A DNA stretch of 55,563 nt, the filler included, from Sphacelaria rigidula (taxonomy: Eukaryota), in the NCBI GenBank assembly GCA_964200075.2. It is 6 parts of 6 records of this genome, joined end to end, with 100 filler letters (N's around TTAATTAATTAA, not from the genome) between each part and the next. Parts side by side here need not be neighbours in the genome. Positions count along the whole stretch, not along the records: positions 1 to 9,178 come from CAXNAA020009113.1; 5 more parts are not named here. The stretch is one strand, 5' to 3'. Both the position numbers and the translations under genes were made by a program. Within the stretch, counting starts at the first letter, position 1. Each line of letters opens with the position of its first letter. Positions 1 to 46,387 of the stretch are shown piece by piece. The notes beneath the pieces are model-generated. The model did no database searches. It was not told where the DNA came from and worked only from the letters and a program-made list of their open reading frames with translations.

Positions 1-2872
1 CACAAACCAGCGATGGATATCCTTTAAAAAAGTACTGCTTCCTTGTACAAGCGAGAAAGTCATTTTCCAACATATCCGTCCTTCCCGCGACAGAAGATTA
101 CTCACCACTGACGGACGTCACGAAGCCGAAACTCTACGGGCAGGTGCTACTAGACACTAGCCGTCGTTCAAGCCCTGGCAGACTTCAATTGAGAGTCGAA
201 ACAGTGCAATATCTGAAGTAGATGATCTTCACTTCACCCCAACTTCCCATTTTGTGACAAGGGTGTTGGCCGCCAAGAAGTGGAGAACTGGTACAGTCTT
301 GCGCGCGAAGAAAAAAAACAATTGTTTCGGAACAGAATCTGACCCTTTTCCGCCCCCGGCTGCAGCGCTGCACCACGCAAGCGGAGATGAAATGATATGG
401 GCTTGTTGGCTGTGCTTTACAGGCCATGTGGCCAAAGTTCCAGCGCGTGAAAGCACCCACAGCGCAGGTATGGGCGTTCCTCCGCACCTCAGGCCCTCTG
501 CAGGCAGTGTGGGACTGGGTTTGGCAGAGATTGTCATTTTCCAGCGGGCGTCCCAGTAGGGGTCGATGTTTGTTTCCCCTTGCTACAGCTGTCGAAGGAC
601 TCATGATGTGGATGTCAGTGCACCGGTGCATCAAAGTGTGTCACAAGGGTCGGTATACGAAGTTTCCGCCCCGGGTAGGCCGTGTGGAGGGCGTATGGTC
701 TGTATTACAAAACCATTTTCCACCACACACCGCGCTAATATTCGCGCCGCGACGAAACGTGCCCCCGCTTGGTGTACATGCAGAGTGCATCATACCCAAC
801 TCGTGTGCCAAGTTTCACGTGGGTTCTTAAACCTTGGGGGGAGAACTTCACAACCAAGGTTTCAGTAACAAACGGCAAAATAATAGCAGTCGACCAGTGA
901 AGATACGGCGGGAACGATTGCGCCACATATTCCGCGTAGGGAACAGAAAGCATGCAGCCGTCGCATCTTCACTCTAACTGTCCCGTCTAGGTGATGTCCA
1001 TGCATGTGCAGGTGCCCGCAAGCGCTTTCTCGGGCTTCGTGCGGAACATGAAGTCGCGGCACATCATCTTCCCCTTGAGAACGTGGACAATAATGCATGC
1101 AACCTACAGCATCCACCTGGCAGCAGCAATGCATATGTTTGACTGACTGTGAAAAACTGTGTCGCCACTCAGGGTGTGGTGGCGGGCGGGCGGGCGGCAG
1201 GTTCTCTGTTTTGAAGACAAACTACTTGGTGGTTCTGTTCTTTTGTGTGTGCTTTTCGCCCTCTGCCATGCTGTCGTGCGCTTCCACCTGACCGCCCATG
1301 TCCCTCTCCGGGTTTTGAAAAGCCCTGGTGGCAAAGTATGAAGGAAACGATACTACCGCCTCTTACAAAGCTCGAAATGGCATCTCGACCTTGATCACGT
1401 TTCATCAATAAAGAAATGCCTTGCTAGCCATGGGATTGTAAAGTTGCAACATCGCGAAAATATTTCCCTATATGGCGCGGGGAGGAGGTGGGGGTTTGCT
1501 GCAGCATTTTCCTCCGGCCGTTGCAACACGGCTGTGCGAGCGTCATCCAGGAAATGATTTTATTACGAGTCAAGCAACGGTAGGGGTGCACATTTCAGTT
1601 CAAAATATCTCTGAGGCTGAACACTGAGGCTCGCCCGTAACATGTTTGGGATCGAGAGTCCTACGGCGAAGAGGCTCAGGACATTGAAACAAACATCCCT
1701 GCGGTGGTATAGTCCTCAGGATTTGCTAGCGTGCAACCATTTCGGTCCATCACTTGAGAGGGTTCTCCCTCTGTAACCAAAAATAGGCGCGTAGGTGTTT
1801 TCCTCTAAAACGACTTCCTCTAGACTACATCGAACAGTGAAGGCCTCCCCGCCTGGGTCAACCACCGCTCGCAACCGACGGAAAAATCCAAGACACGGGG
1901 AAACCTTCCTGCACAATTTGAACTGTGGACTCCCGGACGGTTATTGACAGTATAAGACCGAGGCCCACCGTGTGGAAGAATCGCTGCAGAAAACGGTTTT
2001 GAAAGAGTGCGGGAGCCGGCGCGGCGGGCACACACAACATCCACGCGGGGCGGACATTTCAGGGGCATCCCATCATGAACGGGATAACCGTCCCTGTGCG
2101 ACGAGGCATTATATTCAGTCTTTTTGGTGACGTAGACATCATTCGCGATCCTCTGGTGATGTTCGTGTGTTGAGATCACTTGTGGACTGTCTTCGAGTAG
2201 TGATTGCCTGCCGCCATTCCAGTCTTCGCTGTTGTTTAGGCGTCGATGAAAGAAACAGGGTAGAAGACGACGGCGACAATAAGGCAGAAAATCGATGTTG
2301 ACCGCTTGATTCTGTCGTAGCGGGTGTTTCCCGCCATTGGGGGGGGGGGCTTTCGCCGCCAAATGCGTCATTTACACAAAAAAAAAAAAAAGTTTTTGCT
2401 CGAAAATGCGAACAAGCGTAATATTCCCTCGCGACACAACGGGTTCATTTGCAAGACAATCGCTTGCACGTCTCCGGATCGAGGGATGGTGCTCCGTGAG
2501 TGACAGTGATAACATGATTCCAGAGACGGTTTCAAGACTACTTCGCGTGTCTTGTTGGGAACACTTCACGAAATTTGGCTTGTTACCTTTGCGTACTATC
2601 CACACGAAAACAAGCGTGACATCGACATTTTCACACATGGACAGTAGTGAAGTATCAACAGTTACCGCGCCAAGATTCTCCCCCACGGTCGCAAGCAAGC
2701 GTTTTCGCATGGATAGTAGAGAAACGTCAACAGTTCGAATGGCAGGATTTCGCACCAATGTGCGAGGTAAGCGTTTTGTCCATTAATGATGCAGGCACAA
2801 CCGGCCGCTGAAAGCCATGAAAAGCCTACTCTCAATCGTAGCGTAGACTCTCAATCTCACGGAAACACTGTT

Positions 2873-3138
2873 GGACATGAAACAAAGAAGTTAACCCTCC
2901 TTTTTCTTTGACCTACCACAACACAGCCCGGGCATAGACATGGAATAGAGAGGCCAATCCTCCTCTTCTTTCAACCTACCATAACACAGCCCAGACATGG
3001 ACATGGAAAAAAGAAGCTCACCCTCCCTTTTCTTCAACCTACCATAACACAGCCCAGACATAGACATGGAATAGAGGAGCTAATCCTCCATTTTCTTCAA
3101 CCTACCATTACAGAACCCGGACATAGATCTGGAATAGA
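2873..3138. repeat. 63-bp tandem repeat, about 4 copies, ABAB dimer pattern
   Basis: The motif CCTACCA recurs at 2912, 2975, 3038 and 3101 (63-bp period). Units 1/3 resemble each other, as do units 2/4. Confidence 0.9.
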
Positions 3139-3923
3139 CGCGCGGTCCCAGTTTATCGGGTGGCCGACTGCTGTGGTACATGTACGCTCGGCTAGCACTT
3201 GTAAAACTGCTACTCAAACACACGGCCCACACAAGTATGACGACGGTGCTTCGACGGGAATCTGGTGGAACGCCACGTCGGGATATAACCGGGTTTCGTT
3301 AGATTGACGGTCTAGCGTTGATCGAGAGTAAGGCTGATGACCTACTCGACCTTGACCATCTTCTCATTTTTGTGTGTACGTTATTGCATGTGACATTGCC
3401 GCGTGGTTGCAGCTCCACGACGAGATCCTACCCGGGGATATCAGACCCTTCAATAACAAGCTGTAACAGAACGCATATGGGGCCTAGACGAGCATGTCAG
3501 AACTGAAACCATTCGAGACATGAATAGACCATTTCTGGAACTGCGGAGAGTTCTATACTTACGCATGTTGACGGAGGCCAATGCAATCAAAGTATACACA
3601 TTGAATTCATCCCGCGAAGAAGCGCTCGCATTCGAGTCTATCCTAGCCTGACTGGGGCAGGTATTCTCCAACAATCACCGGTAAAAAAAAAGAGTAGGAA
3701 TTCCTATTTCTTGTGTTCTTACTCTCATCAAACGCAGGATTCTCAGTCTGGCAAAAAGCCTGTTTCGTCAGGACCCCGTCGAAATTCAGAACCGCCTTGC
3801 ATTGTCGAAGAGAAGACACTGTGACGACCAATCATCGTTTCGGACCTCTGACACCATACTTGAGCACAAATCAACAGACTCACTACCCGAGTCGTCTGAG
3901 AACGGTACAACGATTGGTGTAAT

Positions 3924-6900
3924 CTACCGTGTATCGGACGTCCGAGGAGAAGCACTACGTACTCCTAGCTCCAACTTCACCTCTTCAAACGCCACGTCAT
4001 CATACGTGCCCGAGCATCGAGTTACCGCTGCCGGCGAACCACAACCCAATCCAGTACCCCCACAACCACTGCTGGTGAATCCACGACTCCCGCCTTCGCT
4101 GCCCCAACCAATTGCAGGAGAAGCCTGCTTCTGTAACATCCTCGTCCCATCGCCACCCCGTGTAGGAGAAGGGACCGCCAGCTCTACCTTCATTCCTGCC
4201 CTTGTTCCTGCCCGCAAAAACACCCCATCATCAGCCCTCGAAGGTGGGTGTCTCGGGAGCAAAAGTGGACGTCCCGAGAGCGACGGGCTTCTCTCCCCCT
4301 GCCTGGAACCGGCGCACGAACTGCGACGGGCACCTACGCCGTCGTTCGCACCAGAACCCGACAGTGCTGCGCGCTTGCGCTTCATTCCTCGTTCATCAGC
4401 AACGCTCCCTCCATCACCCTCCGTCGCGCTACGGCCAGAGGTGCCCTTAACAGGGTTGAGCTTCGTGGTGTCGAAAACGGCAGCCGTGTTGTGTGCACTA
4501 GCATCCTTTTGGCAAAGTGTTTCGTTGTCGAGAGGTAGTTTGGAGCACTGCTTCTCGCCGCACCTCTTACGTACCACATTCGCCATTTCCACCCTGACCA
4601 CCTTGGAGCAAACCTCTGTCTTACTGCTTACTGCCACACAAGAAGTCGGCAGCGAGGAGCAGACGTCGTAGCCGCACTTGTTGTTCACCACATTCACCAT
4701 TCCCACCCTGGCATGCTTAGAACAGAACTCCGCCTTCTTGCTTCTCGCCACACCATACGACGGCTGCATGGAGGAGCCCTCGTGGCCGCACGCCTTGTGC
4801 TTCACATCCACCATTCCCGCCCTGGAATGCTCGGAACAGAACTCCGCTTGCGTGCTTCCCACCACATCATACGACGGCAGCGTGGAGCAGCCCTCGTGCC
4901 CGCATGTTTTGGTCTTCACACTCACCATTCCCGCCCTGGCATGCTCGAAACAGAGCTCCGCCTTCGTGCTTCCCGCCACACCATACGACGGCTGCGTGGA
5001 GCAGCCCTCGTACCCGCAAATCGTGTTCCTCACATTCACCATTCCCGCACTGGCATGCTTAGAGCAGAACTCCGACTTCTCGCTTCCCGCCACACCATAC
5101 GACGGCTGCGTGGAGCAGCCCTCGTACCCGCACATCTTGTTCCTCACATTCACCATTCCCGCCCTGGCATGCTTGAAACAGAACTCCACCTTTTTGCTCC
5201 CCGCCACACCATACGATGCAAGCGTGCGACAGCCGTCGTCGCTGCACGTCTTGCTCCTCACATTCACCATTCCCGCCCTGGCATGCTTGGAACAAAATTC
5301 CGCATTTTTGCTCCCCGCCACACCATACGACGGCTGCGTGGAGCAGCCCTCGTGCCCGCACATCTTGTCCTTAACATTCACCATTCCCGCCCTGGCATGC
5401 TTGAAACAGAACTCCGCCTTCGTGCTCCCCGCCACACCATACGACGGCTGCGTGGAGCAGCCCTTGTCGCTGCATGTCTTGTTCTTCACATTCACCATTC
5501 CCGCCCTGGCATGCTTGGAACAGAACTCCGCCTTTTTGCACCCCGCCACACCATACGACGACTGGATGGAGCAGCCCTCGTACCCGCATATTTTGTTCCT
5601 TACATTCACCATTCCCGCCCTGGCATGCTTGAAACAGAGCTCCACCTTCTTGCTCCCCGCCACACCATACGACGGCTGCGTGGAGCAGCCCTCGTCGCTG
5701 CACATCTTGTTTCTCACATCTACCATTCCCGCCCTGGCATGCTTGAAACAGAACTCCGCCTTCTTGCTCCCCGCCACACCATACGACGGCTGCGTAGAGC
5801 AGTTCTTGTCGCTGCACGTCTTATGCTTCACATGCACCATCCCCACCCTGGCATGCTTGGAACAGAACTCCGCCTTTTTGCTTCCCGCCACACCATACGA
5901 CGACTGCATGGAGCAGCCCTCGTACCCGCACATCTTGTTCCTCACATTCACCATTCCCGCCCTGGCGTGCTTGACGCAAAAATCCGCTTTTTTGCTCCCC
6001 GCTACACCGTACGATGCAAGCGTGCGACAGCCCTCGTCGCTGCACATCTTGTCCCTCACATTCACCATTCCCGCCCTGGCGTGCTTGACGCAAAAATCCG
6101 CCTTCGTGCTCCCCGCCACACCATACGACGGCAGCGTGGAGCAGCCCTCGTACCCGCACATCTTGTTCCTCACATCTACCATTCCCGCCTTGGCATGTTT
6201 GGAACAGAACTCCGCCTTCGTGCTCCCCGCCACACCATACGACGGCAGCGTGGAGCAGCCCTTGTCGCTGCACTTCTTGTGCTTCACATGCACCATTCCC
6301 GCCCTGGCATGCTTGGAACAGAACTCCGCCTTCGTGCTCCCCGCCACACCATACGACGGCAGCGTGGAGCAGCCCTCGTACCCGCAGATCTTACTCCTCA
6401 CATTCACCATTCCCGCCCTGGCATGCTTGAAGCAAAAGTCCGCTTTTTTGCTCCTCGCCACACCATACGATGCAAGCGTGCGACAGCTCTCGTACCCGCA
6501 CATCTTGTTCCTCACATTCACCATTCCCGCCCTGGCATGCTTGGAACAGAACTCCGCCTTCGTGCTCCCCGCCACACCATACGACGGCAGCGTGGAGCAA
6601 CCCTCGTACCTGCACATTTTGTCCTTAACATTCACCATTCCCGCCCTGGCATGTTTGGAACAGAACTCCGCCTTTTTGCTCCCCGCCACACCATACGACG
6701 CCAGCGTTGAGCAGCCCTTGTCGCTGCACGTCTTGTGCTTCACATGCACCATTCCCGCCCTGGCATGCTTGGAACAGAACTCCGCCTTTTTGCTCCCCGC
6801 TACACCATACGACGACTGCGTGAAGCAGCCCTCGTACACGCACATCTTGTACTTCACATTCACCGTTCCCTCCCTGGCATGCTTGAAGCAAAAGTCCGCT

Positions 6901-7790
6901 TTTTTGCTCCCCGCTACACCATACGATGCAAGCGTGCGACAGCCCTCGTCGCTGCACATCTTGTGCTTCACATGCACCATTCCCGCCCTGGCATGCTTGG
7001 AACAGAACTCCGCCTTCTTGCTCCCCGCCACACCATACGACGGCTGCGTGGAGCAGCCCTCGTACCCGCACACCTTGTGCTTCACATTCACCATTCCCGC
7101 CTTGGCATGCTTGACGCAAAAATCCGCCTTTTTGCTCCCCGCCACACCATACGACGACTGCGTGGAGCAGCCTTTGTCGCTGCACGTCTTGTCCTTCACA
7201 TGTATCATTCCCGCCCTGGCATGCTTGGAACAGAATTCCGCCTTCGTGCTCGCCGCCACACCATACGACGACTGCATGGAGCAGCCCTCGTGCCCGCACA
7301 TCTTGCCCTTCACATTCACCATTCCCGCACTGGCATGATCGGAGCAAAAACCCGCCTTTTTGCTCCCCGCCACACCATACGATGCAAGCGTGCGACAGCC
7401 CTCGTACCCGCACGTCTTGTTCCTCACATTCACCATTCCCACCCTGGTATGTTTGGAACAGAACTCCGCCTTCGTGCTCCCCGCCACATCATACGACGGC
7501 TGCGTGGAGCAGCCCTCGTAGCCGCACTTGTTTCTCACATTAACCATTCCCGCCGCGGCATGCCTGGAGCAGATTTCCCCCGTCTTGCTTCCCGCCACAC
7601 CATGCCATGCAAGCGTGGGACAGCCCTCGTGACCGCACATCGTTTTCGCCACATTCACCATTCCCGCCTTGGCATGCTTGGAACAGAACTCCACCTTCAT
7701 GCCTTCCGCCACACCATACGACGGACGCGTGGAGCAGCCCTCGTGGCCGCACATTTTGTTCCTTACATTAACCATTTCCGCCCCGGGCAT
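3924..7790 (-). CDS. EsV-1-7 cysteine-rich repeat protein: 27 near-identical 38-aa repeats plus 2 degenerate ones, and a low-complexity C-terminal tail
   Basis: Uninterrupted ORF 3924..7946. First ATG at 7790 (MPGAEMVNV), giving ~1288 aa. Repeat consensus CGYEGCSTQPSYGVAGSKKAEFCSKHARAGMVNVRNKM fits C-x4-C-x16-C-x2-H-x12, the EsV-1-7 motif known from Ectocarpus siliculosus virus 1 and the Ectocarpus IMMEDIATE UPRIGHT family. The true start or an upstream exon is uncertain. Confidence 0.92.
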   Translation of the reverse strand: MPGAEMVNVRNKMCGHEGCSTRPSYGVAEGMKVEFCSKHAKAGMVNVAKTMCGHEGCPTLAWHGVAGSKTGEICSRHAAAGMVNVRNKCGYEGCSTQPSYDVAGSTKAEFCSKHTRVGMVNVRNKTCGYEGCRTLASYGVAGSKKAGFCSDHASAGMVNVKGKMCGHEGCSMQSSYGVAASTKAEFCSKHARAGMIHVKDKTCSDKGCSTQSSYGVAGSKKADFCVKHAKAGMVNVKHKVCGYEGCSTQPSYGVAGSKKAEFCSKHARAGMVHVKHKMCSDEGCRTLASYGVAGSKKADFCFKHAREGTVNVKYKMCVYEGCFTQSSYGVAGSKKAEFCSKHARAGMVHVKHKTCSDKGCSTLASYGVAGSKKAEFCSKHARAGMVNVKDKMCRYEGCSTLPSYGVAGSTKAEFCSKHARAGMVNVRNKMCGYESCRTLASYGVARSKKADFCFKHARAGMVNVRSKICGYEGCSTLPSYGVAGSTKAEFCSKHARAGMVHVKHKKCSDKGCSTLPSYGVAGSTKAEFCSKHAKAGMVDVRNKMCGYEGCSTLPSYGVAGSTKADFCVKHARAGMVNVRDKMCSDEGCRTLASYGVAGSKKADFCVKHARAGMVNVRNKMCGYEGCSMQSSYGVAGSKKAEFCSKHARVGMVHVKHKTCSDKNCSTQPSYGVAGSKKAEFCFKHARAGMVDVRNKMCSDEGCSTQPSYGVAGSKKVELCFKHARAGMVNVRNKICGYEGCSIQSSYGVAGCKKAEFCSKHARAGMVNVKNKTCSDKGCSTQPSYGVAGSTKAEFCFKHARAGMVNVKDKMCGHEGCSTQPSYGVAGSKNAEFCSKHARAGMVNVRSKTCSDDGCRTLASYGVAGSKKVEFCFKHARAGMVNVRNKMCGYEGCSTQPSYGVAGSEKSEFCSKHASAGMVNVRNTICGYEGCSTQPSYGVAGSTKAELCFEHARAGMVSVKTKTCGHEGCSTLPSYDVVGSTQAEFCSEHSRAGMVDVKHKACGHEGSSMQPSYGVARSKKAEFCSKHARVGMVNVVNNKCGYDVCSSLPTSCVAVSSKTEVCSKVVRVEMANVVRKRCGEKQCSKLPLDNETLCQKDASAHNTAAVFDTTKLNPVKGTSGRSATEGDGGSVADERGMKRKRAALSGSGANDGVGARRSSCAGSRQGERSPSLSGRPLLLPRHPPSRADDGVFLRAGTRAGMKVELAVPSPTRGGDGTRMLQKQASPAIGWGSEGGSRGFTSSGCGGTGLGCGSPAAVTRCSGTYDDVAFEEVKLELGVRSASPRTSDTR
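4677..7751 (-). repeat. Coding tandem array of 114-bp units (27 copies, one of them 111 bp)
   Basis: First Cys codon of repeat 1 is at 7751 and of degenerate repeat 28 is at 4676. The spacing equals 27x38-1 codons. Confidence 0.95.
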
Positions 7791-8952
7791 GCTTGTTGAT
7801 GTACCGTCTTCTAGGAATGTCGGCCGTGAGCTCCTTCCGAGGCGCTCCTTCGCAATTGTACTGCTTAGAGTAGCACGAATACCCAGACGGCGGAAAATAT
7901 TTTGTGAGTCGGGGGCCAGAGCAAGTTGAAACGCCTTGCAGTGCAAATGTCATTGTTATTGCTGCACAACCTTTGGAGAAAAAACGTGTGCCTGCATTCA
8001 ACTCAGAAGACGCTTCATGTAAGCTAACGCCAACTTGCAAGATGATTCCAGCGGATGGGACGCCCTCTACGCTATTGCAGTAGGAATCAGAAGCGGATCA
8101 AGCAATAGAGTGGTACAAAACAAAAGACCATCATACTACAGGGCGCATGTAAAGCACAACACCGATGCTGAAGGATGTCGTATCATGGAGGAACGGCAGA
8201 TTGCTATATTTCAAAGTAGCAAATGTAGGGCTTACACGTCACACACGAAGAGTCAGTCGGAAAATGTTATGCACGATCAAGAGGCAGAAATAGTAACCGA
8301 CTGAGTGAGCGATCGCTATCCAGCATCACATGAGCAAACTACTCGGGTACACATGTGAACGGGCGCGAGTGTGGGGGGCGGTGCGGCTGCAGTGTTGCTA
8401 ACCAAAAGCGCCAGCAGAACTGCTCCTGCCGTATTATAGCTTGCAAAGAGGGTGAAGGCGATGTGATACATAAAGCGAGTTTTCAATTTAGCATAGACAC
8501 TTGCTACGTCAAAATATGAAAATAATTTGTTGAGATATCGACAATAGAGAGTTTCGGAAACACAAATCAAAACTCACGGATAAGGAAAAACTCAGGGATT
8601 ATCAAGAAAGTTGGGATTTAAGACCAGGACATGACGAATTCCCTTAGGTAAACCCCGAAAATTGAACCCTGAGAAAAGACATTTGCAGAAACTCAAGTTT
8701 AATTTTCAATTTTTCAAAAAAAAACTGAGCTGCTAGACACCCCAAAGCGTTGGTGCCAAACTCAGGGCTATGAAACGGAACTAGACACCCTGCCCCATAA
8801 CGACCTAGGTTACAGAACACAGCCATAGGGAAAATGTCATAAGTGAGGCGGTGGCGGATGTCGTGAACGCCCGCGACAGCACTGGTGATGGCAGCTCGTT
8901 CACAAGGGTGACCCAAACCTAGGAGGAACACTTGGAGGCGAACGGGGGTGTC

Positions 8953-9178
8953 GAGACACCAGTCGACCTGGCTTATGATGATGCGAAAGGGCGGGAGTCG
9001 GCCGCTCAAGCAGCTGCTATGAGGACTTGACGAAATGGCAACCCAACGTGAAGCTTGCGTTAGCTCGCGCAGTTGCACCACCGTTGGGTGGCCATTTTGT
9101 CGAGATCCTCGTAGCGGCTGCATGGGTGGCCGACTTCAGCCCTTCCACGTCATCGAAAGCCAGGTCGACAGGTGTCTC
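8953..9178. repeat. Imperfect inverted repeat, ~96-bp arms, ~33-nt loop, running to the contig end
   Basis: GAGACACCAGTCGACCTGGCTT...CCCAACG (8953-9048) pairs with CGTTGGG...AAGCCAGGTCGACAGGTGTCTC (9082-9178). Confidence 0.8.
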
Positions 9179-9278
9179 NNNNNNNNNNNNNNNNNNNNNN
9201 NNNNNNNNNNNNNNNNNNNNNNTTAATTAATTAANNNNNNNNNNNNNNNNNNNNNNNNNNNNNNNNNNNNNNNNNNNN
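9179..9278. other. Artificial contig linker N44-TTAATTAATTAA-N44
   Basis: 100-bp spacer with an all-frame stop linker, identical at five positions. Confidence 0.98.
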
Positions 9279-14043: not shown

Positions 14044-14874
14044 CTACGTGCATGATCGCAAGTCTTGCTTGCTCTCCTGTCTAACACGCTTGAACTGCCA
14101 AAGCGACCGTTGGAACCCGGGGTCAACGATGTCCACGTGTACCGATGCATAAGTAGCAGGCTGCTCCAGACGACGAGCTTGTACGCGCTTGAATTCCCAC
14201 AGTGACCGCTGAAACCCTGGGTTAACAATGTCAAGCTGCACCGGCGGAGGGCACCCAGGCGACTCCAAATGACAGGCTTTGACAGTTCTTGGTTGCCTCA
14301 AGTCCACCATACCGTCATCAGCGCAGCCACTACAGAATTTCGCCTCATTGGTTCCCTGCCAACCGTGCGAAGGTCGCCTGCAGCAACCCTTGCGCGCACA
14401 CCTCTTGTTCGCAACGTTCGACATCTCATCACTGGCATGCTGTGAGCAGAATCGTGCCGTCGTCTCTCCCGCTATAGCGAAAGACGGCTGCTTGTTACAG
14501 CCCTCTTGGACACACTTTTTGCTCGCCACGTGCACCATTCCGTCCTCAGCATGCCTCACGCAGTATCTCGCCTTTTTTGTTCCCCTATTACCGTACGATG
14601 GCCTCTTGCCGCATCCACTGTACGAGCACCTCTTTCGTTTGTTTGCAACATCCACCATCCCTTCTTTGGCGTGCCGTACGCAGAACAGCGGCTTAGTAGT
14701 TCCTTCCAGTCCATAAGACGGGTACTTCGTACAGTCCTCGCGGTAGCACTTCTTACTCACGACGTCTCGCATACCACGCTCGGCGTGTGCTACACAGAAT
14801 TCCGCCATTCGAGTGCCTGGTAGGCCATACGATGCTCGTGTGGAGCAATCGACGTGGCGGCAAACTCGAGGCAT
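14044..14874 (-). CDS. Short EsV-1-7 cysteine-rich repeat protein (5 divergent repeats plus a duplicated C-terminal motif), ~276 aa
   Basis: ORF 14044..14955, first ATG at 14874 (MPRVCRHVDCSTRASYG). Five C-x4-C-x16-C-x2-H units, the fifth ending in C, each followed by a GMVDV-like linker. Confidence 0.88.
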   Translation of the reverse strand: MPRVCRHVDCSTRASYGLPGTRMAEFCVAHAERGMRDVVSKKCYREDCTKYPSYGLEGTTKPLFCVRHAKEGMVDVANKRKRCSYSGCGKRPSYGNRGTKKARYCVRHAEDGMVHVASKKCVQEGCNKQPSFAIAGETTARFCSQHASDEMSNVANKRCARKGCCRRPSHGWQGTNEAKFCSGCADDGMVDLRQPRTVKACHLESPGCPPPVQLDIVNPGFQRSLWEFKRVQARRLEQPATYASVHVDIVDPGFQRSLWQFKRVRQESKQDLRSCT

Positions 14875-15244
14875 GTCTCTCCCGAAAAAAGCAAACAAGT
14901 CGTCTTCGGTAAGTACCACACAGAACCCGATCTCGTGGGAAGCCGATGGCGGCACAGAGCGATAGGCTTAGGCGTATGTAAGACCCGTGGGAAGCTCTAC
15001 GCTCTCGGAGTGTACTTTCCAGCTGGAGATGTGGCGCCCCGATATTGCTGTACGATCTCTATCCCACAACGCCTTTCCGATCCAAATACTGTGATCCGCT
15101 CACGTCGCCTCCTCGTAACGTCTCAACCTGCAGGGCACTGTGCAGGCATATGTTGGACAGAATCACGGCCATGAGTGCAGTAGTGCATGTCTTTGACAGG
15201 ACCTTGCCATACGCCAAGAGGGTATGTTCGGCAGCTATACGGTA

Positions 15245-18456: not shown

Positions 18457-18556
18457 NNNNNNNNNNNNNNNNNNNNNNNNNNNNNNNNNNNNNNNNNNNN
18501 TTAATTAATTAANNNNNNNNNNNNNNNNNNNNNNNNNNNNNNNNNNNNNNNNNNNN
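18457..18556. other. Artificial contig linker
   Basis: N44-TTAATTAATTAA-N44. Confidence 0.98.
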
Positions 18557-19715: not shown

Positions 19716-22700
19716 GCAGAAGAACGGGCGCAAGATGCGGCACCGAGCGCCTCCGCGCTGAGATCCAACGCGGAATTGGCGGTGTCGAAGGGCGAGCATG
19801 ATAAGGCCATCAGGCTCTTCTCCCAGGTACGAATAGCTCCCATACAGCCGGTGCAGCGATCGGTACCGTGGTGACTTCGCCTTCGACAGTTTCGGCCGAA
19901 CACATGAGCGGTGCCGCGGTATGGTACGAATCGATGATCGGGGCTGCCTTTGCTCGTAGTTGAAGGAATTTTACGTAACACACGGGCAGTCCGTCGAACA
20001 CAACGTGAGCGTCGGTTCTTTGATCGGCGAGGTGGGCCGTATTCGAAGAAGGCAATATTTTCATTCGAAATAAATGATGCAAGACCCAGATAACCCACCC
20101 TGGGGGTAGCCAAAGTATTAAAAAGATCACAAGAAGAGAATATATATATATATAGATATATATAGATATAGATCTAGTGTGCAGTGACCGTCGCGGTCGT
20201 TGTAATGTCTGAATAGCAGCTGAAACGATACACAACTGAAACACGGTCGGCGTGGGGCATCTCCGCTGAACTTCTCGTTTGCGTCAACTTCCATCGTTGG
20301 ATGTCTCGACTGCCACAAACATATAATTAGCCCTGCAAGTGCGTTCCCGTTTATGTCTCGAGTGTGCGTAAGTGTTCTCCTCATCTCGCATGTTGTACAC
20401 AACTTGATGTCATCGGAACCAAAAAGAAAGTAAAGCCGACAGGCGAAAACAAACCCTATCGCGGGTATTTTCGGAATCGATGTTCCTTGTTTCCCACGTA
20501 CGAACAAAGAAGAAGGTCCATTGAAAATGGATTGTGTGGGGGACGTCGCAGGTGATCGCGCTGGAGCCGAAGAACGAGCGAAACTTGTACAAGCGGTTCC
20601 GAGTGTATCTGTCGAAACGGAAGTATGCAGAAGCCGTCGCAGACCTGTCGCGTGCTCTCGAGCTCAAGCCCAAGTACAAGCAGGTACGACGAGGGAAATG
20701 ACGAGCTACTGTTATAGTGTCCATATTGAGTCGTGGATCTTTGTGACGCTTTTTTTTTCTCTGTACGGTTTTTAACTAGATATTGGTTGTTGTTTTTCGT
20801 TGGTTGTGGTTACCGCTGATTGTGTACGGTTTTGTGCTTTTTACCCTCTCGCTTCTTCCTGTTTGCTTGAAGGGAGAAGATGTTTTAACCGTTCATGTAT
20901 CCATATACGGCGGGGGGGGGGGGACGGGGCATACGTCTAAGCCCCGCTATACTACCTCACCCTGCTTGCCGGCAGCGGATGAGATGACGCTCGTATTCCC
21001 TCTTCTCCCCCACTTCCTCGTTCTAATTGGATACTGGTACTATCCGATGTCGTTTGGTGAGTCTCCCAGAAATAGGTTGGCGGTTGATCATTGAAAGAGC
21101 CTGTCTCTGTAGAGCGGGACTCTGCTACGATGACATATACGGGATGTGTGCAACGTAGTGTGCATCAATCACCCGAAAAAAGCTCGATGTGGGAAAATAT
21201 CCACCCAGCTGCTGCGATGAGTGATTTTTTTTCCCCCTGCTTCTTGCTTCGATCCTCGACAATCGCTGTACCTGCACCCGCGTTATTCAGGCCTTGGCCC
21301 AGCGTGCTCGGCTGCTCCGCATGATGGGCCGGTGCGAGGGAGCGATGAGGGACTACGCCGCGTTGGAGAGTATCGACCCCAAGCATGCCGACCTCGCTAC
21401 GCTGTATCCCCTTGCCCAAAGCTGCGCCACGAGACTGGTGGATGCCACGCTGGCGGAGTCCCGAAGAGATTGGCAGGTGAGGTCTCCTGAGTATCCCGTA
21501 GTATGCGTGGGATGACCAGTCAAGATATATTGTAGTATACTACCCGAAGATGAGCGAAGTTGGCGTGTGGGCCGCCGTGCGATCGGTTGACCATGGCGCA
21601 GTGGTGGGTGGATTCCCGAAGAGGTTGGGTATGCGAGAGTCACCCAAGTATTTCAAAGTTGTGTTCTTTAGGGTATACCGGCTGATTTTTGGGTATTTGT
21701 GTTCATGTTTAGGCTAGATAGAGATTTGTATATTTTTCTGGATTGATACCTACACGCGCACGCACACGACCTCTCTACCCCCTCCACAACATGCCAATGC
21801 GAACCAGGCGGCCGCCGACGCCTACGATGCCATCTTAGACGAGCAGCTAGACCTTGTCGGCGCGGGACTGCTCCTAAGGAGGGCTAGATGCCACTTTGCG
21901 CTGGGGAGGTGGCTGCAGGCGGCTGCGGATGCCGGTCGAGCGGCCAAGCTAGCGGCCGAAGGAGACATGGACCAGGGCGGCAGCGGGGCGCGCGAACGTG
22001 CGGAGGCTCTGGAGCTTCGGGGGCGGTGCTACATCGCGCTGGGGGACTTCGAGATGGCTGCCAATCACTTCAGAGAGGTGTGTGCGAGAGAGAAAGAGAG
22101 ACGGACAGCGAGACAAATATGTGTAAATATATATTTCGCATGGGACATGGATGTATCTGGAGACTTGAGTGTAGCAAGCACAAATCCGTTCTTGGAGAAA
22201 AGAGGAAGCGAGCTCTGGGATGCGAGTCTTGTGTTTTGTGTTTTGTGTTTTGTGTTTTGTGTTTTGTGCCATGCTGTACTGTGCAGGACGTTTGTAGTTG
22301 GGAAAGGAAGGGATGACGGAATGAAGAAGGTACCAACAACGGTGTGCCGCAGATGATACCGTATGTTAACGGCAAGTATAGTAGTATCACCTTTAACCAC
22401 CATTGAATAGCCACGAGGCAGTGTAATGAGTGGCTGTCTCTGGAAGTGGCGAGACCAGAACACGAACCGGTTCATTCGAGGTTGTCTTCCGTGTGCAAGA
22501 TGATTGGAACGCTTCGGGTATAGCAATCTTTGTAGGATGCAACCCACCCTTGATGCGACTTGCCGAACACATCACGGCGCTTCGCGCTTGGTGGTTGATT
22601 GCAAGCCTAGTCCGACGAAAGCCCAGCGTGCTCCGTCCCGGCTTTGTAGAGATGCGAGGTCAATGGTTCTATTACTACGGCCTGTAGAATCATGAGTGCA

Positions 22701-27733: not shown

Positions 27734-27833
27734 NNNNNNNNNNNNNNNNNNNNNNNNNNNNNNNNNNNNNNNNNNNNTTAATTAATTAANNNNNNNNNNN
27801 NNNNNNNNNNNNNNNNNNNNNNNNNNNNNNNNN
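27734..27833. other. Artificial contig linker
   Basis: N44-TTAATTAATTAA-N44. Confidence 0.98.
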
Positions 27834-37010: not shown

Positions 37011-37110
37011 NNNNNNNNNNNNNNNNNNNNNNNNNNNNNNNNNNNNNNNNNNNNTTAATTAATTAANNNNNNNNNNNNNNNNNNNNNNNNNNNNNNNNNN
37101 NNNNNNNNNN
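37011..37110. other. Artificial contig linker
   Basis: N44-TTAATTAATTAA-N44. Confidence 0.98.
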
Positions 37111-46287: not shown

Positions 46288-46387
46288 NNNNNNNNNNNNN
46301 NNNNNNNNNNNNNNNNNNNNNNNNNNNNNNNTTAATTAATTAANNNNNNNNNNNNNNNNNNNNNNNNNNNNNNNNNNNNNNNNNNNN
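46288..46387. other. Artificial contig linker
   Basis: N44-TTAATTAATTAA-N44. Confidence 0.98.

Follow-up and report, generated by a model that had tools for sequence, protein, structure and literature searches.

A 27-unit EsV-1-7 array gene in the brown alga Sphacelaria rigidula: block structure, recombination and a family-wide variable position

Does a long tandem array of small, putatively zinc-binding repeats read its target unit by unit, or does its order of variants reflect nothing more than the way in which tandem repeats grow? The question is raised by a gene in a 55,563-nt stretch of DNA from the brown alga Sphacelaria rigidula (GCA_964200075.2), which consists of six parts of six genome records joined end to end and is referred to below as the window. 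The gene lies on the minus strand of the first part (CAXNAA020009113.1, window positions 1-9,178) and encodes 27 tandem units of the EsV-1-7 type. A preliminary description of this DNA likened the array to a transcription activator-like effector (TAL effector, TALE), proposing that residues 9 and 10 of each unit take four states in aperiodic order and that these states could constitute a recognition code. Here we show that the array gene is an extreme, i.e. unusually long, member of a known family of brown algae and giant viruses, that the mosaic order of its units reflects duplication and conversion acting on the whole unit without any special process at the di-residue, and that position 9, but not position 10, is a recurrent variable hot spot throughout the family. 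A TALE-like four-state code is unlikely on this evidence.

Anatomy and family membership of the array gene

The proposed coding sequence (3924-7790, minus strand), taken from the open reading frame (ORF) list and a Pfam scan of the translation, runs from an ATG at 7790 to a stop at 3924-3926 and encodes 1288 aa. The frame is open from 7946 to 3924 (1340 codons) and the ATG at 7790 is its first; a second in-frame ATG, five codons further downstream, matches the start of the M-V-N-V relatives P0127, P0129 and P0157. The array itself, 27 units of 38 aa (114 nt), occupies positions 4677-7751 of the minus strand, exactly as the preliminary description had placed it. These limits are supported by the unit table, by Tandem Repeats Finder, which returned one array (4633-7795, period 114 nt, 27.8 copies, 83% matches), and by the Pfam family PF19114 (EsV_1_7_cys), which matches the protein in 27 stretches with 1287.2 bits against a cut-off of 25. 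Unit 1 spans 7751-7638, unit 2 is 37 aa long, and every unit k from the third onwards starts at 7526-114(k-3); the repeat spacing is 38 aa throughout, except for the 37 aa after unit 2.

The exact C-x4-C-x16-C-x2-H pattern, and with it all four putative metal ligands, is kept in 26 of the 27 units, the exception being unit 27, in which Ser replaces the second Cys. Downstream of the array, the translation continues through a degenerate 28th unit (4563-4676, minus strand) that keeps its three Cys residues but carries Val where the His ligand would be, and then through a 212-aa non-repeat C-terminal tail (3927-4562, minus strand), into which a BLASTP alignment of P0129 extends and which aligns with relatives. 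The tail is basic (pI 9.5, 211 of 212 residues analysed) and contains the KRKR motif at 4371-4382 (minus strand), resembling a nuclear localisation signal (NLS) and seen in both the translation and an alignment of five sub-family members. The G+C content of the stretch is about 50% and eukaryote-like. Because the repeat is free of stop codons, long plus-strand ORFs (886 and 665 aa) run through the array DNA as a side effect.

The EsV-1-7 family was reportedly defined in the study of Macaisne et al. 2017. Our homology searches returned 20 and 105 matches, every one of which carries PF19114, and those of the closest relatives that bear names are EsV-1-7 proteins of brown algae, namely of Sphacelaria rigidula, Ectocarpus species, Scytosiphon and Pylaiella. 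The family comprises 6334 representatives at E<=0.001, 991 of them at E<=1e-30. The array gene shares with it the C-x4-C-x16-C-x2-H-x12 motif, the 38-aa period and the match to the EsV-1-7 model. It differs in length: with 27-28 units it is the longest EsV-1-7 array among the proteins compared, none of the 267 others having more than 15 units under a strict pattern or 16 under a loose one. This sample does not cover the whole family, and Table S17 of the Phaeoexplorer preprint, a list of family members, may contain longer ones. For the Ectocarpus developmental regulator IMMEDIATE UPRIGHT (IMM), which belongs to this family, five repeats are reported. One preprint passage counts 2018 EsV-1-7 proteins in 31 genomes, and another calls them the largest orthogroup.

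The other feature that sets the array gene apart from the family at large is its tail, which is common only to a small sub-family. We found it in four shorter proteins of about 4-8 units (P0129, P0157, P0127 and P0136), and the alignment with these has invariant columns around KRKR and around two K-x-E motifs. K-R-K-R is present in four of the five aligned members and K-R-N-R in P0136, leaving three of the four columns invariant. Since the tail is shared with shorter proteins, the gene belongs to this sub-family and its array was expanded here; unit number across the tail-defined sub-family ranges from about 4 to 27. No protein of 708-2254 aa was found to have the tail, the tail relatives all being shorter, and no close full-length orthologue of the 27-unit protein was found in the homology searches. 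The two hydrophobic-K-x-E motifs of the tail resemble the acceptor consensus for small ubiquitin-like modifier (SUMO).

Beyond the algae, units of the array match 13 giant-virus loci among the giant-virus contigs of IMG/VR (L002-L014), with 26-47% identity. The viral arrays have 5-12 units (e.g. L002:2069-4000, L005:476-1951 and L007:2492-4054). They are like the algal array in having the same motif with a hot spot at position 9, and unlike it in lying on viral contigs, in being shorter and in not having the sub-family tail. Pro is fixed at their position 10, while position 9 is occupied by Arg, Gln, Ile, His or Glu. Three 620-aa giant-virus ORFs (L012-L014) match only model positions 8-35 and represent a truncated unit variant. 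A search of metagenome contigs produced only one array, L001, which is 30% identical and too divergent for within-array tests.

Mosaic order of the units and variation at positions 9 and 10

The di-residues listed in the preliminary description are correct letter for letter in all 27 units, and so are their counts (QP 9, LA 7, QS 5, LP 5 and RP 1). The scaffold on which they stand is another matter. The units had been called near-identical and their scaffold nearly invariant, yet mean pairwise identity is 84% at the DNA level (range 74-97%) and 72% at the protein level, no two of the 27 units are the same, and variation in the array is spread over at least 10 unit positions. Within the array, the entropy of position 9 is 1.19 bits (10th of 38 positions) and that of position 10 is 1.43 bits (4th of 38); for comparison, the values are 2.40 bits for position 36, 2.03 for position 38, 1.53 for position 3, 1.38 for position 35, 1.37 for position 33, 1.33 each for positions 2 and 18, and 1.28 for position 24. 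When the positions are ranked by nonsynonymous diversity, position 10 comes 6th and position 9 comes 7th. The notion of a TALE-like hypervariable di-residue is not borne out, as at least eight other positions vary as much in the array. Position 11, by comparison, is invariant in 26 of the 27 units.

At the codon level, QP (CAG CCG), LP (CTG CCG) and QS (CAG TCG) are single-base neighbours. LA has two spellings, as had been pointed out: CTT-GCA in six units and CTG-GCG in unit 10 (6699-6704, minus strand; codon table), the latter being one base away from the LP codons CTG-CCG. All six CTT-GCA units carry Lys18 and five of them also carry Arg7 (CGC). Counted over the whole array, LA goes with Lys18 in 7 of 7 units and with Arg7 in 5 of 7, while LP goes with Thr18 in 5 of 5. 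Most of the LA units form a type of their own, linked to Arg7, and the 'four states' stem from two ordinary variable codons rather than from an independent set of four words.

The order of the units, which had been taken to be aperiodic, has a 4-unit periodicity. Unit identity at lag 4 is 0.870, compared with 0.840 +/- 0.007 when the order is shuffled, and none of 5000 shuffles reached 0.870; the value for lag 8 is 0.861 (p 0.007, order shuffles). The core of this higher-order repeat, defined by the lag analysis, block identities and a check of the translation, comprises units 5-16 (5931-7298, minus strand), where blocks 5-8, 9-12 and 13-16, compared in register, share 90-91% identity over a background of 84%. 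Individual unit types recur accordingly along the array: the Arg7-LA type (R-T-L-A) at units 4, 8, 12 and 16, the Ser-Asp-Lys type (S-D-K) at units 6, 10, 14 and 18, and the His33/His36 type at units 5, 9, 13 and 17. The most divergent units are those at both ends, as is expected of an array that has been homogenised in its middle.

Recombination has acted on top of this block structure. The four-gamete test was failed by 324 of 595 informative site pairs, synonymous sites included, and the incompatible fraction climbs with distance from 0.36 (<10 nt) to 0.68 (>=50 nt). Sites in codons 9-10 are incompatible at 0.47-0.71, which falls inside the range of synonymous sites (0.47-0.85). Units with the same di-residue state are slightly more alike than other pairs (0.863 versus 0.845, p 0.002), and they remain so with codons 7-10 masked (0.862 versus 0.850, p 0.02). 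Taken together, the lag, block, four-gamete and state-linkage results describe a mosaic order that comes from duplication and conversion of the whole unit. Thus the preliminary description was right that the array has been rewritten by the shuffling of repeats, i.e. by unit and block duplication plus recombination, but not in suggesting that the di-residue states are shuffled in a special manner, since synonymous sites are shuffled equally. Its own caveat, that recombination among a few ancestral units could give the same pattern, is the better account of the array.

The array is constrained coding sequence. Among the units, the proportion of synonymous differences (pS) is 0.235 and that of nonsynonymous differences (pN) 0.139, with an omega of 0.54, and the codons of the ligands vary synonymously: Cys23 is TGT in 19 units and TGC in 8, Cys6 is TGC in 20 and TGT in 6, and His26 is CAT in 25 and CAC in 2.

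Next to this array, the wider family gives positions 9 and 10 very different roles. A set of 274 distinct units, drawn from 103 proteins, has position 10 as one of its most conserved sites (Pro in 188 units, Ala in 52 and Ser in 21), and position 9 ranks 4th for variability, at least eight residues being common there. Within 23 homogenised arrays of other organisms (at least 6 units, unit identity at least 0.55), the highest mean entropies belong to positions 36 (1.71 bits), 9 (1.65), 35 (1.48) and 11 (1.43), compared with 0.37 bits at position 10. We also compared nonsynonymous diversity per site (piN) with array-wide synonymous diversity (piS) on the DNA of eight giant-virus arrays and the 27-unit array, counting the six that are unsaturated; the per-site ratios are crude and noisy, as they are drawn from 6-26 units per array and an array-wide piS, and some of the viral arrays may be related. 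Position 9 alone has a site piN above the array piS in all six arrays, with ratios of 1.17, 1.58, 1.85, 3.44 and 1.73, and of 1.33 in the 27-unit array (mean 1.85). The ratio exceeds 1 in four of six arrays at positions 24 and 36, in three of six at position 11, and at position 10 in one of six, namely the 27-unit array. The earlier idea that the di-residue is a special variable site thus survives in half: position 9 is a family-wide hot spot, while its position-10 partner and a four-letter alphabet arose by local accident in the 27-unit array.

Predicted structure and the reading of the array

We modelled units 9-11 with AlphaFold2 on an alignment with 105 natural relatives (predicted local distance difference test, pLDDT, 87.6; predicted template modelling score, pTM, 0.52). 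The predicted three-unit structure is all-beta, with strands at unit positions 12-14 and 31-33 and no helix of four or more residues. DSSP assigns bridges in this model to position 22 in all three units, and to position 9 together with position 38 of the preceding unit in two of the three. Among solved structures, Foldseek on the PDB gave no look-alike at E<=0.001, the best VIA-align match was to B-box chains with a Z of only 2.1, a profile search of PDB sequences had no match at E<=1, and the ESM Atlas yielded no usable match. Predicted viral structures (BFVD) contained 30 matches at E<=0.001, including EsV-1-7 and EsV-1-115; for EsV-1-7 (Q8QNQ2) the values are E 4.4e-13 and TMq 0.62. Some of the BFVD matches bear the name endonuclease (in Faunusvirus, cedratvirus and pithovirus) and one is named DNA primase; these are unconfirmed names and, if they are right, the proteins would be fusions of the module to DNA-acting enzymes.

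How might such a protein work? We consider it likely that the array gene encodes a basic, probably nuclear protein of many zinc modules that grew by unequal crossing-over and binds a polyanion multivalently. Each 38-aa unit would be a small, mostly beta module, probably holding one zinc ion, as has been proposed for the family, through Cys1, Cys6, Cys23 and His26. The 27-28 units of the array would have accumulated through unequal crossing-over, both of single units and of blocks of four, after which short-tract gene conversion would have scrambled variants among them. The protein would reside in the nucleus, where many weak module contacts would bind it to an extended polyanion, most probably DNA or chromatin, and the contacts of each module may be tuned by surface positions near the first zinc knuckle, chiefly position 9, together with 36, 24 and 11 in relatives. 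We favour a nuclear, multivalent binder of nucleic acid or chromatin because the array has a basic composition (pI 9.3, net charge +3.0 per unit), as had been stated before, because the tail carries a conserved KRKR, because the family is hypothesised to consist of zinc-finger transcription factors (PMC12629598), and because a Tc1/mariner transposase is reported to carry one EsV-1-7 domain at its N-terminus (PMC12477816). We infer zinc binding, a nuclear location, with KRKR acting as the NLS, and nucleic-acid binding, the last of which is plausible for the array protein.

Several results weigh against this picture of a multivalent binder. With a pTM of 0.52 the arrangement between units is uncertain, and a six-unit model built on an alignment from the window alone has a pLDDT of 31 and is unusable. 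None of ten giant-virus EsV-1-7 ORFs scanned has a second real Pfam domain, every other family listed for them having no passing stretch, so that enzyme fusions were not reproduced. No contig from the four sequencing runs spans the array, although these contigs are short and the parts that they leave uncovered are uninformative, and none of the available runs is recorded as RNA. Finally, the link between di-residue state and the rest of the unit is weak by a tree test: on a unit tree built without codons 7-10, which is poorly resolved, the states change 13 times, compared with 15.3 times for shuffled labels (p 0.067).

This last result also speaks for a TALE-like reader, in which each unit would read one base or ligand unit through its four-state positions 9-10 and a target would be spelled by the sequence of units. 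The di-residue list is real, LA has been reached by two codon routes, position 9 varies throughout the family and the array is basic, all of which agree with such a reader. We nevertheless regard it as very improbable. Positions 9-10 are no outliers within the array, position 10 is conserved across the family, position 9 takes at least eight common states there instead of four letters, the order of the units is periodic, and synonymous sites are shuffled as much as codons 9-10. The model contains no helical solenoid. A search of the window for targets with all 24 state-to-base assignments in four orientations, which is a weak test because it covers 55 kb only, gave a best match of 18/26, within the 18-20 obtained with 20 order-shuffled controls. 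In the portions of the EsV-1-7 literature that we found, no per-unit recognition code is proposed. A looser form of modular recognition, closer to PRDM9, the KRAB zinc-finger proteins (KZFPs) and other tandem C2H2 fingers, or to pentatricopeptide repeat (PPR) proteins, than to TALEs, would have DNA or RNA read, a few bases per unit, by a patch made up of position 9, which lies three residues beyond the second Cys, with positions 11, 24 and 36, this patch being under diversifying selection in algae and giant viruses and the arrays being re-targeted by block duplication and conversion. We find this unlikely too, if less so. The consistent excess at position 9 and the partial excess at 24, 36 and 11 speak for it, as do the leading entropies of positions 36, 9, 35 and 11 in the homogenised arrays and the reported transposase fusion; in the model, the assignment of position 9, and of position 38 in the preceding unit, as bridge residues in two of three units would bring hot-spot residues close together. 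High variability, however, may mark merely the least constrained surface, the site estimates carry the limits of unit number, array-wide piS and possible relatedness given above, the pTM provides no regular superhelix, and position 11 hardly varies in the algal array.

Zinc modules of the LIM, B-box, RING or PHD kind gather protein partners, and the array could be a scaffold of this type, which we hold to be distinctly unlikely. Its weak look-alikes among solved structures are indeed protein-binding zinc modules (by Foldseek the nsp13 zinc domain, LIM, RING and PHD at E >=1.7, and by VIA-align the B-box chains); these matches lie far below significance, and the charge of +3 per unit, the transposase fusion and the transcription-factor hypothesis point to nucleic acid instead. 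There is, lastly, very little to recommend the view that the array is an assembly artefact, or a neutral or decaying expansion without a function of its own. Besides the missing spanning contig, many contigs can be placed at two positions, the searches brought up no close full-length orthologue, and a ligand is gone from each of the last two units (a Cys from unit 27, the His from unit 28). On the other side, each of the 27 units is distinct, which speaks against errors of collapse or duplication, the 1340-codon frame stays open, the tail is conserved in relatives, and an omega of 0.54 is coupled with synonymous change at invariant residues.

TALE repeats are helical units of 33-35 aa that bind no metal and carry two adjacent hypervariable residues on almost identical units. 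The array is like them in being a long tandem series of ~35-aa units with some unit-variable residues and a repetitive, recombination-prone DNA sequence, and unlike them in that its units are built on Cys and His, are all-beta in the model, share 72% protein identity and vary at 10 or more positions; no TAL family is among the Pfam matches of the protein. The PPR and Pumilio/FBF (PUF) proteins also have a helical repeat fold, unlike the all-beta model, and no such Pfam match was obtained. The arrays of PRDM9 and the KZFPs grow and reshuffle by unequal crossing-over and conversion and have hot-spot residues in each module. Tandem C2H2 arrays of this kind (KRAB-ZNF, PRDM9) may offer the best functional analogy, for the array likewise has small, putative zinc modules, minisatellite-like DNA, unequal crossing-over with conversion and a few candidate hot-spot residues. 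The differences are that the putative ligands of the array are CCCH with 4/16/2 spacing, that the model lacks the helix of the beta-beta-alpha fold, that the protein has no zf-C2H2 Pfam match, that the hot-spot excess in the array is modest (about 1.3) and that synonymous divergence between units is high (pS 0.235).

Genomic surroundings and significance for the family

A second EsV-1-7 gene lies at 14044-14967, on the same strand as the array gene (minus). It was found by a motif scan, translation and PF19114 (232.7 bits, 5 stretches) and has five much more divergent units. The two genes fit a local gene cluster, in agreement with the reported tandem clusters of EsV-1-7 genes, with the proviso that the joined parts of the window need not be neighbours in the genome. 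In the C-terminal part of this second gene, a motif of ~20 aa is directly duplicated, the copies being ~30 aa apart.

No viral or transposon Pfam domain was detected in 20 other ORFs of the window, and no repeats resembling long terminal repeats (LTRs) or terminal inverted repeats (TIRs) bracket the array gene. Upstream of 7896, depth drops to about 0-5 in runs X1 and X4, whose kind is unknown or guessed to be RNA, but is kept up in X5 and X7; this is at most a weak hint of a transcript end. Just upstream of the array gene, the contig word depth at 8508-9100 is ~1e4 to 7e4 in X5 and X7, against a few hundred nearby, which suggests a high-copy repeat, and 8953-9048 and 9082-9178 form an inverted 97-nt self-match. 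On the other side of the gene, positions 2874-3203 hold a tandem repeat of ~63 nt, with self-matches at offsets of 63 and 126 nt and 83-84% identity; it is probably a high-copy satellite, because contig word depth there is very high in two DNA-like runs. Elsewhere in the window, an ORF at 21718-22356 (plus strand) has sub-threshold tetratricopeptide-repeat matches (TPR_2 reaches 25.1 bits, the cut-off being 27). Five pairs of 44-N runs, ~9277 nt apart (9179-9278, 18457-18556, 27734-27833, 37011-37110 and 46288-46387), look like masking or scaffolding marks without biological meaning.

EsV-1-7 ranks with the most expanded brown-algal gene families, is shared with giant viruses and includes the developmental regulator IMM. 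For experimenters, our analysis singles out position 9 as one concrete residue per module and discounts position 10, and the 27-unit array provides a natural long array for binding or structural work on this family. If the array reflects only neutral expansion, it still illustrates cleanly how a higher-order repeat grows and undergoes conversion within a coding minisatellite. If, on the other hand, the hot-spot residues do form a recognition patch, EsV-1-7 arrays would constitute a class of modular polymer readers that has not been described before.

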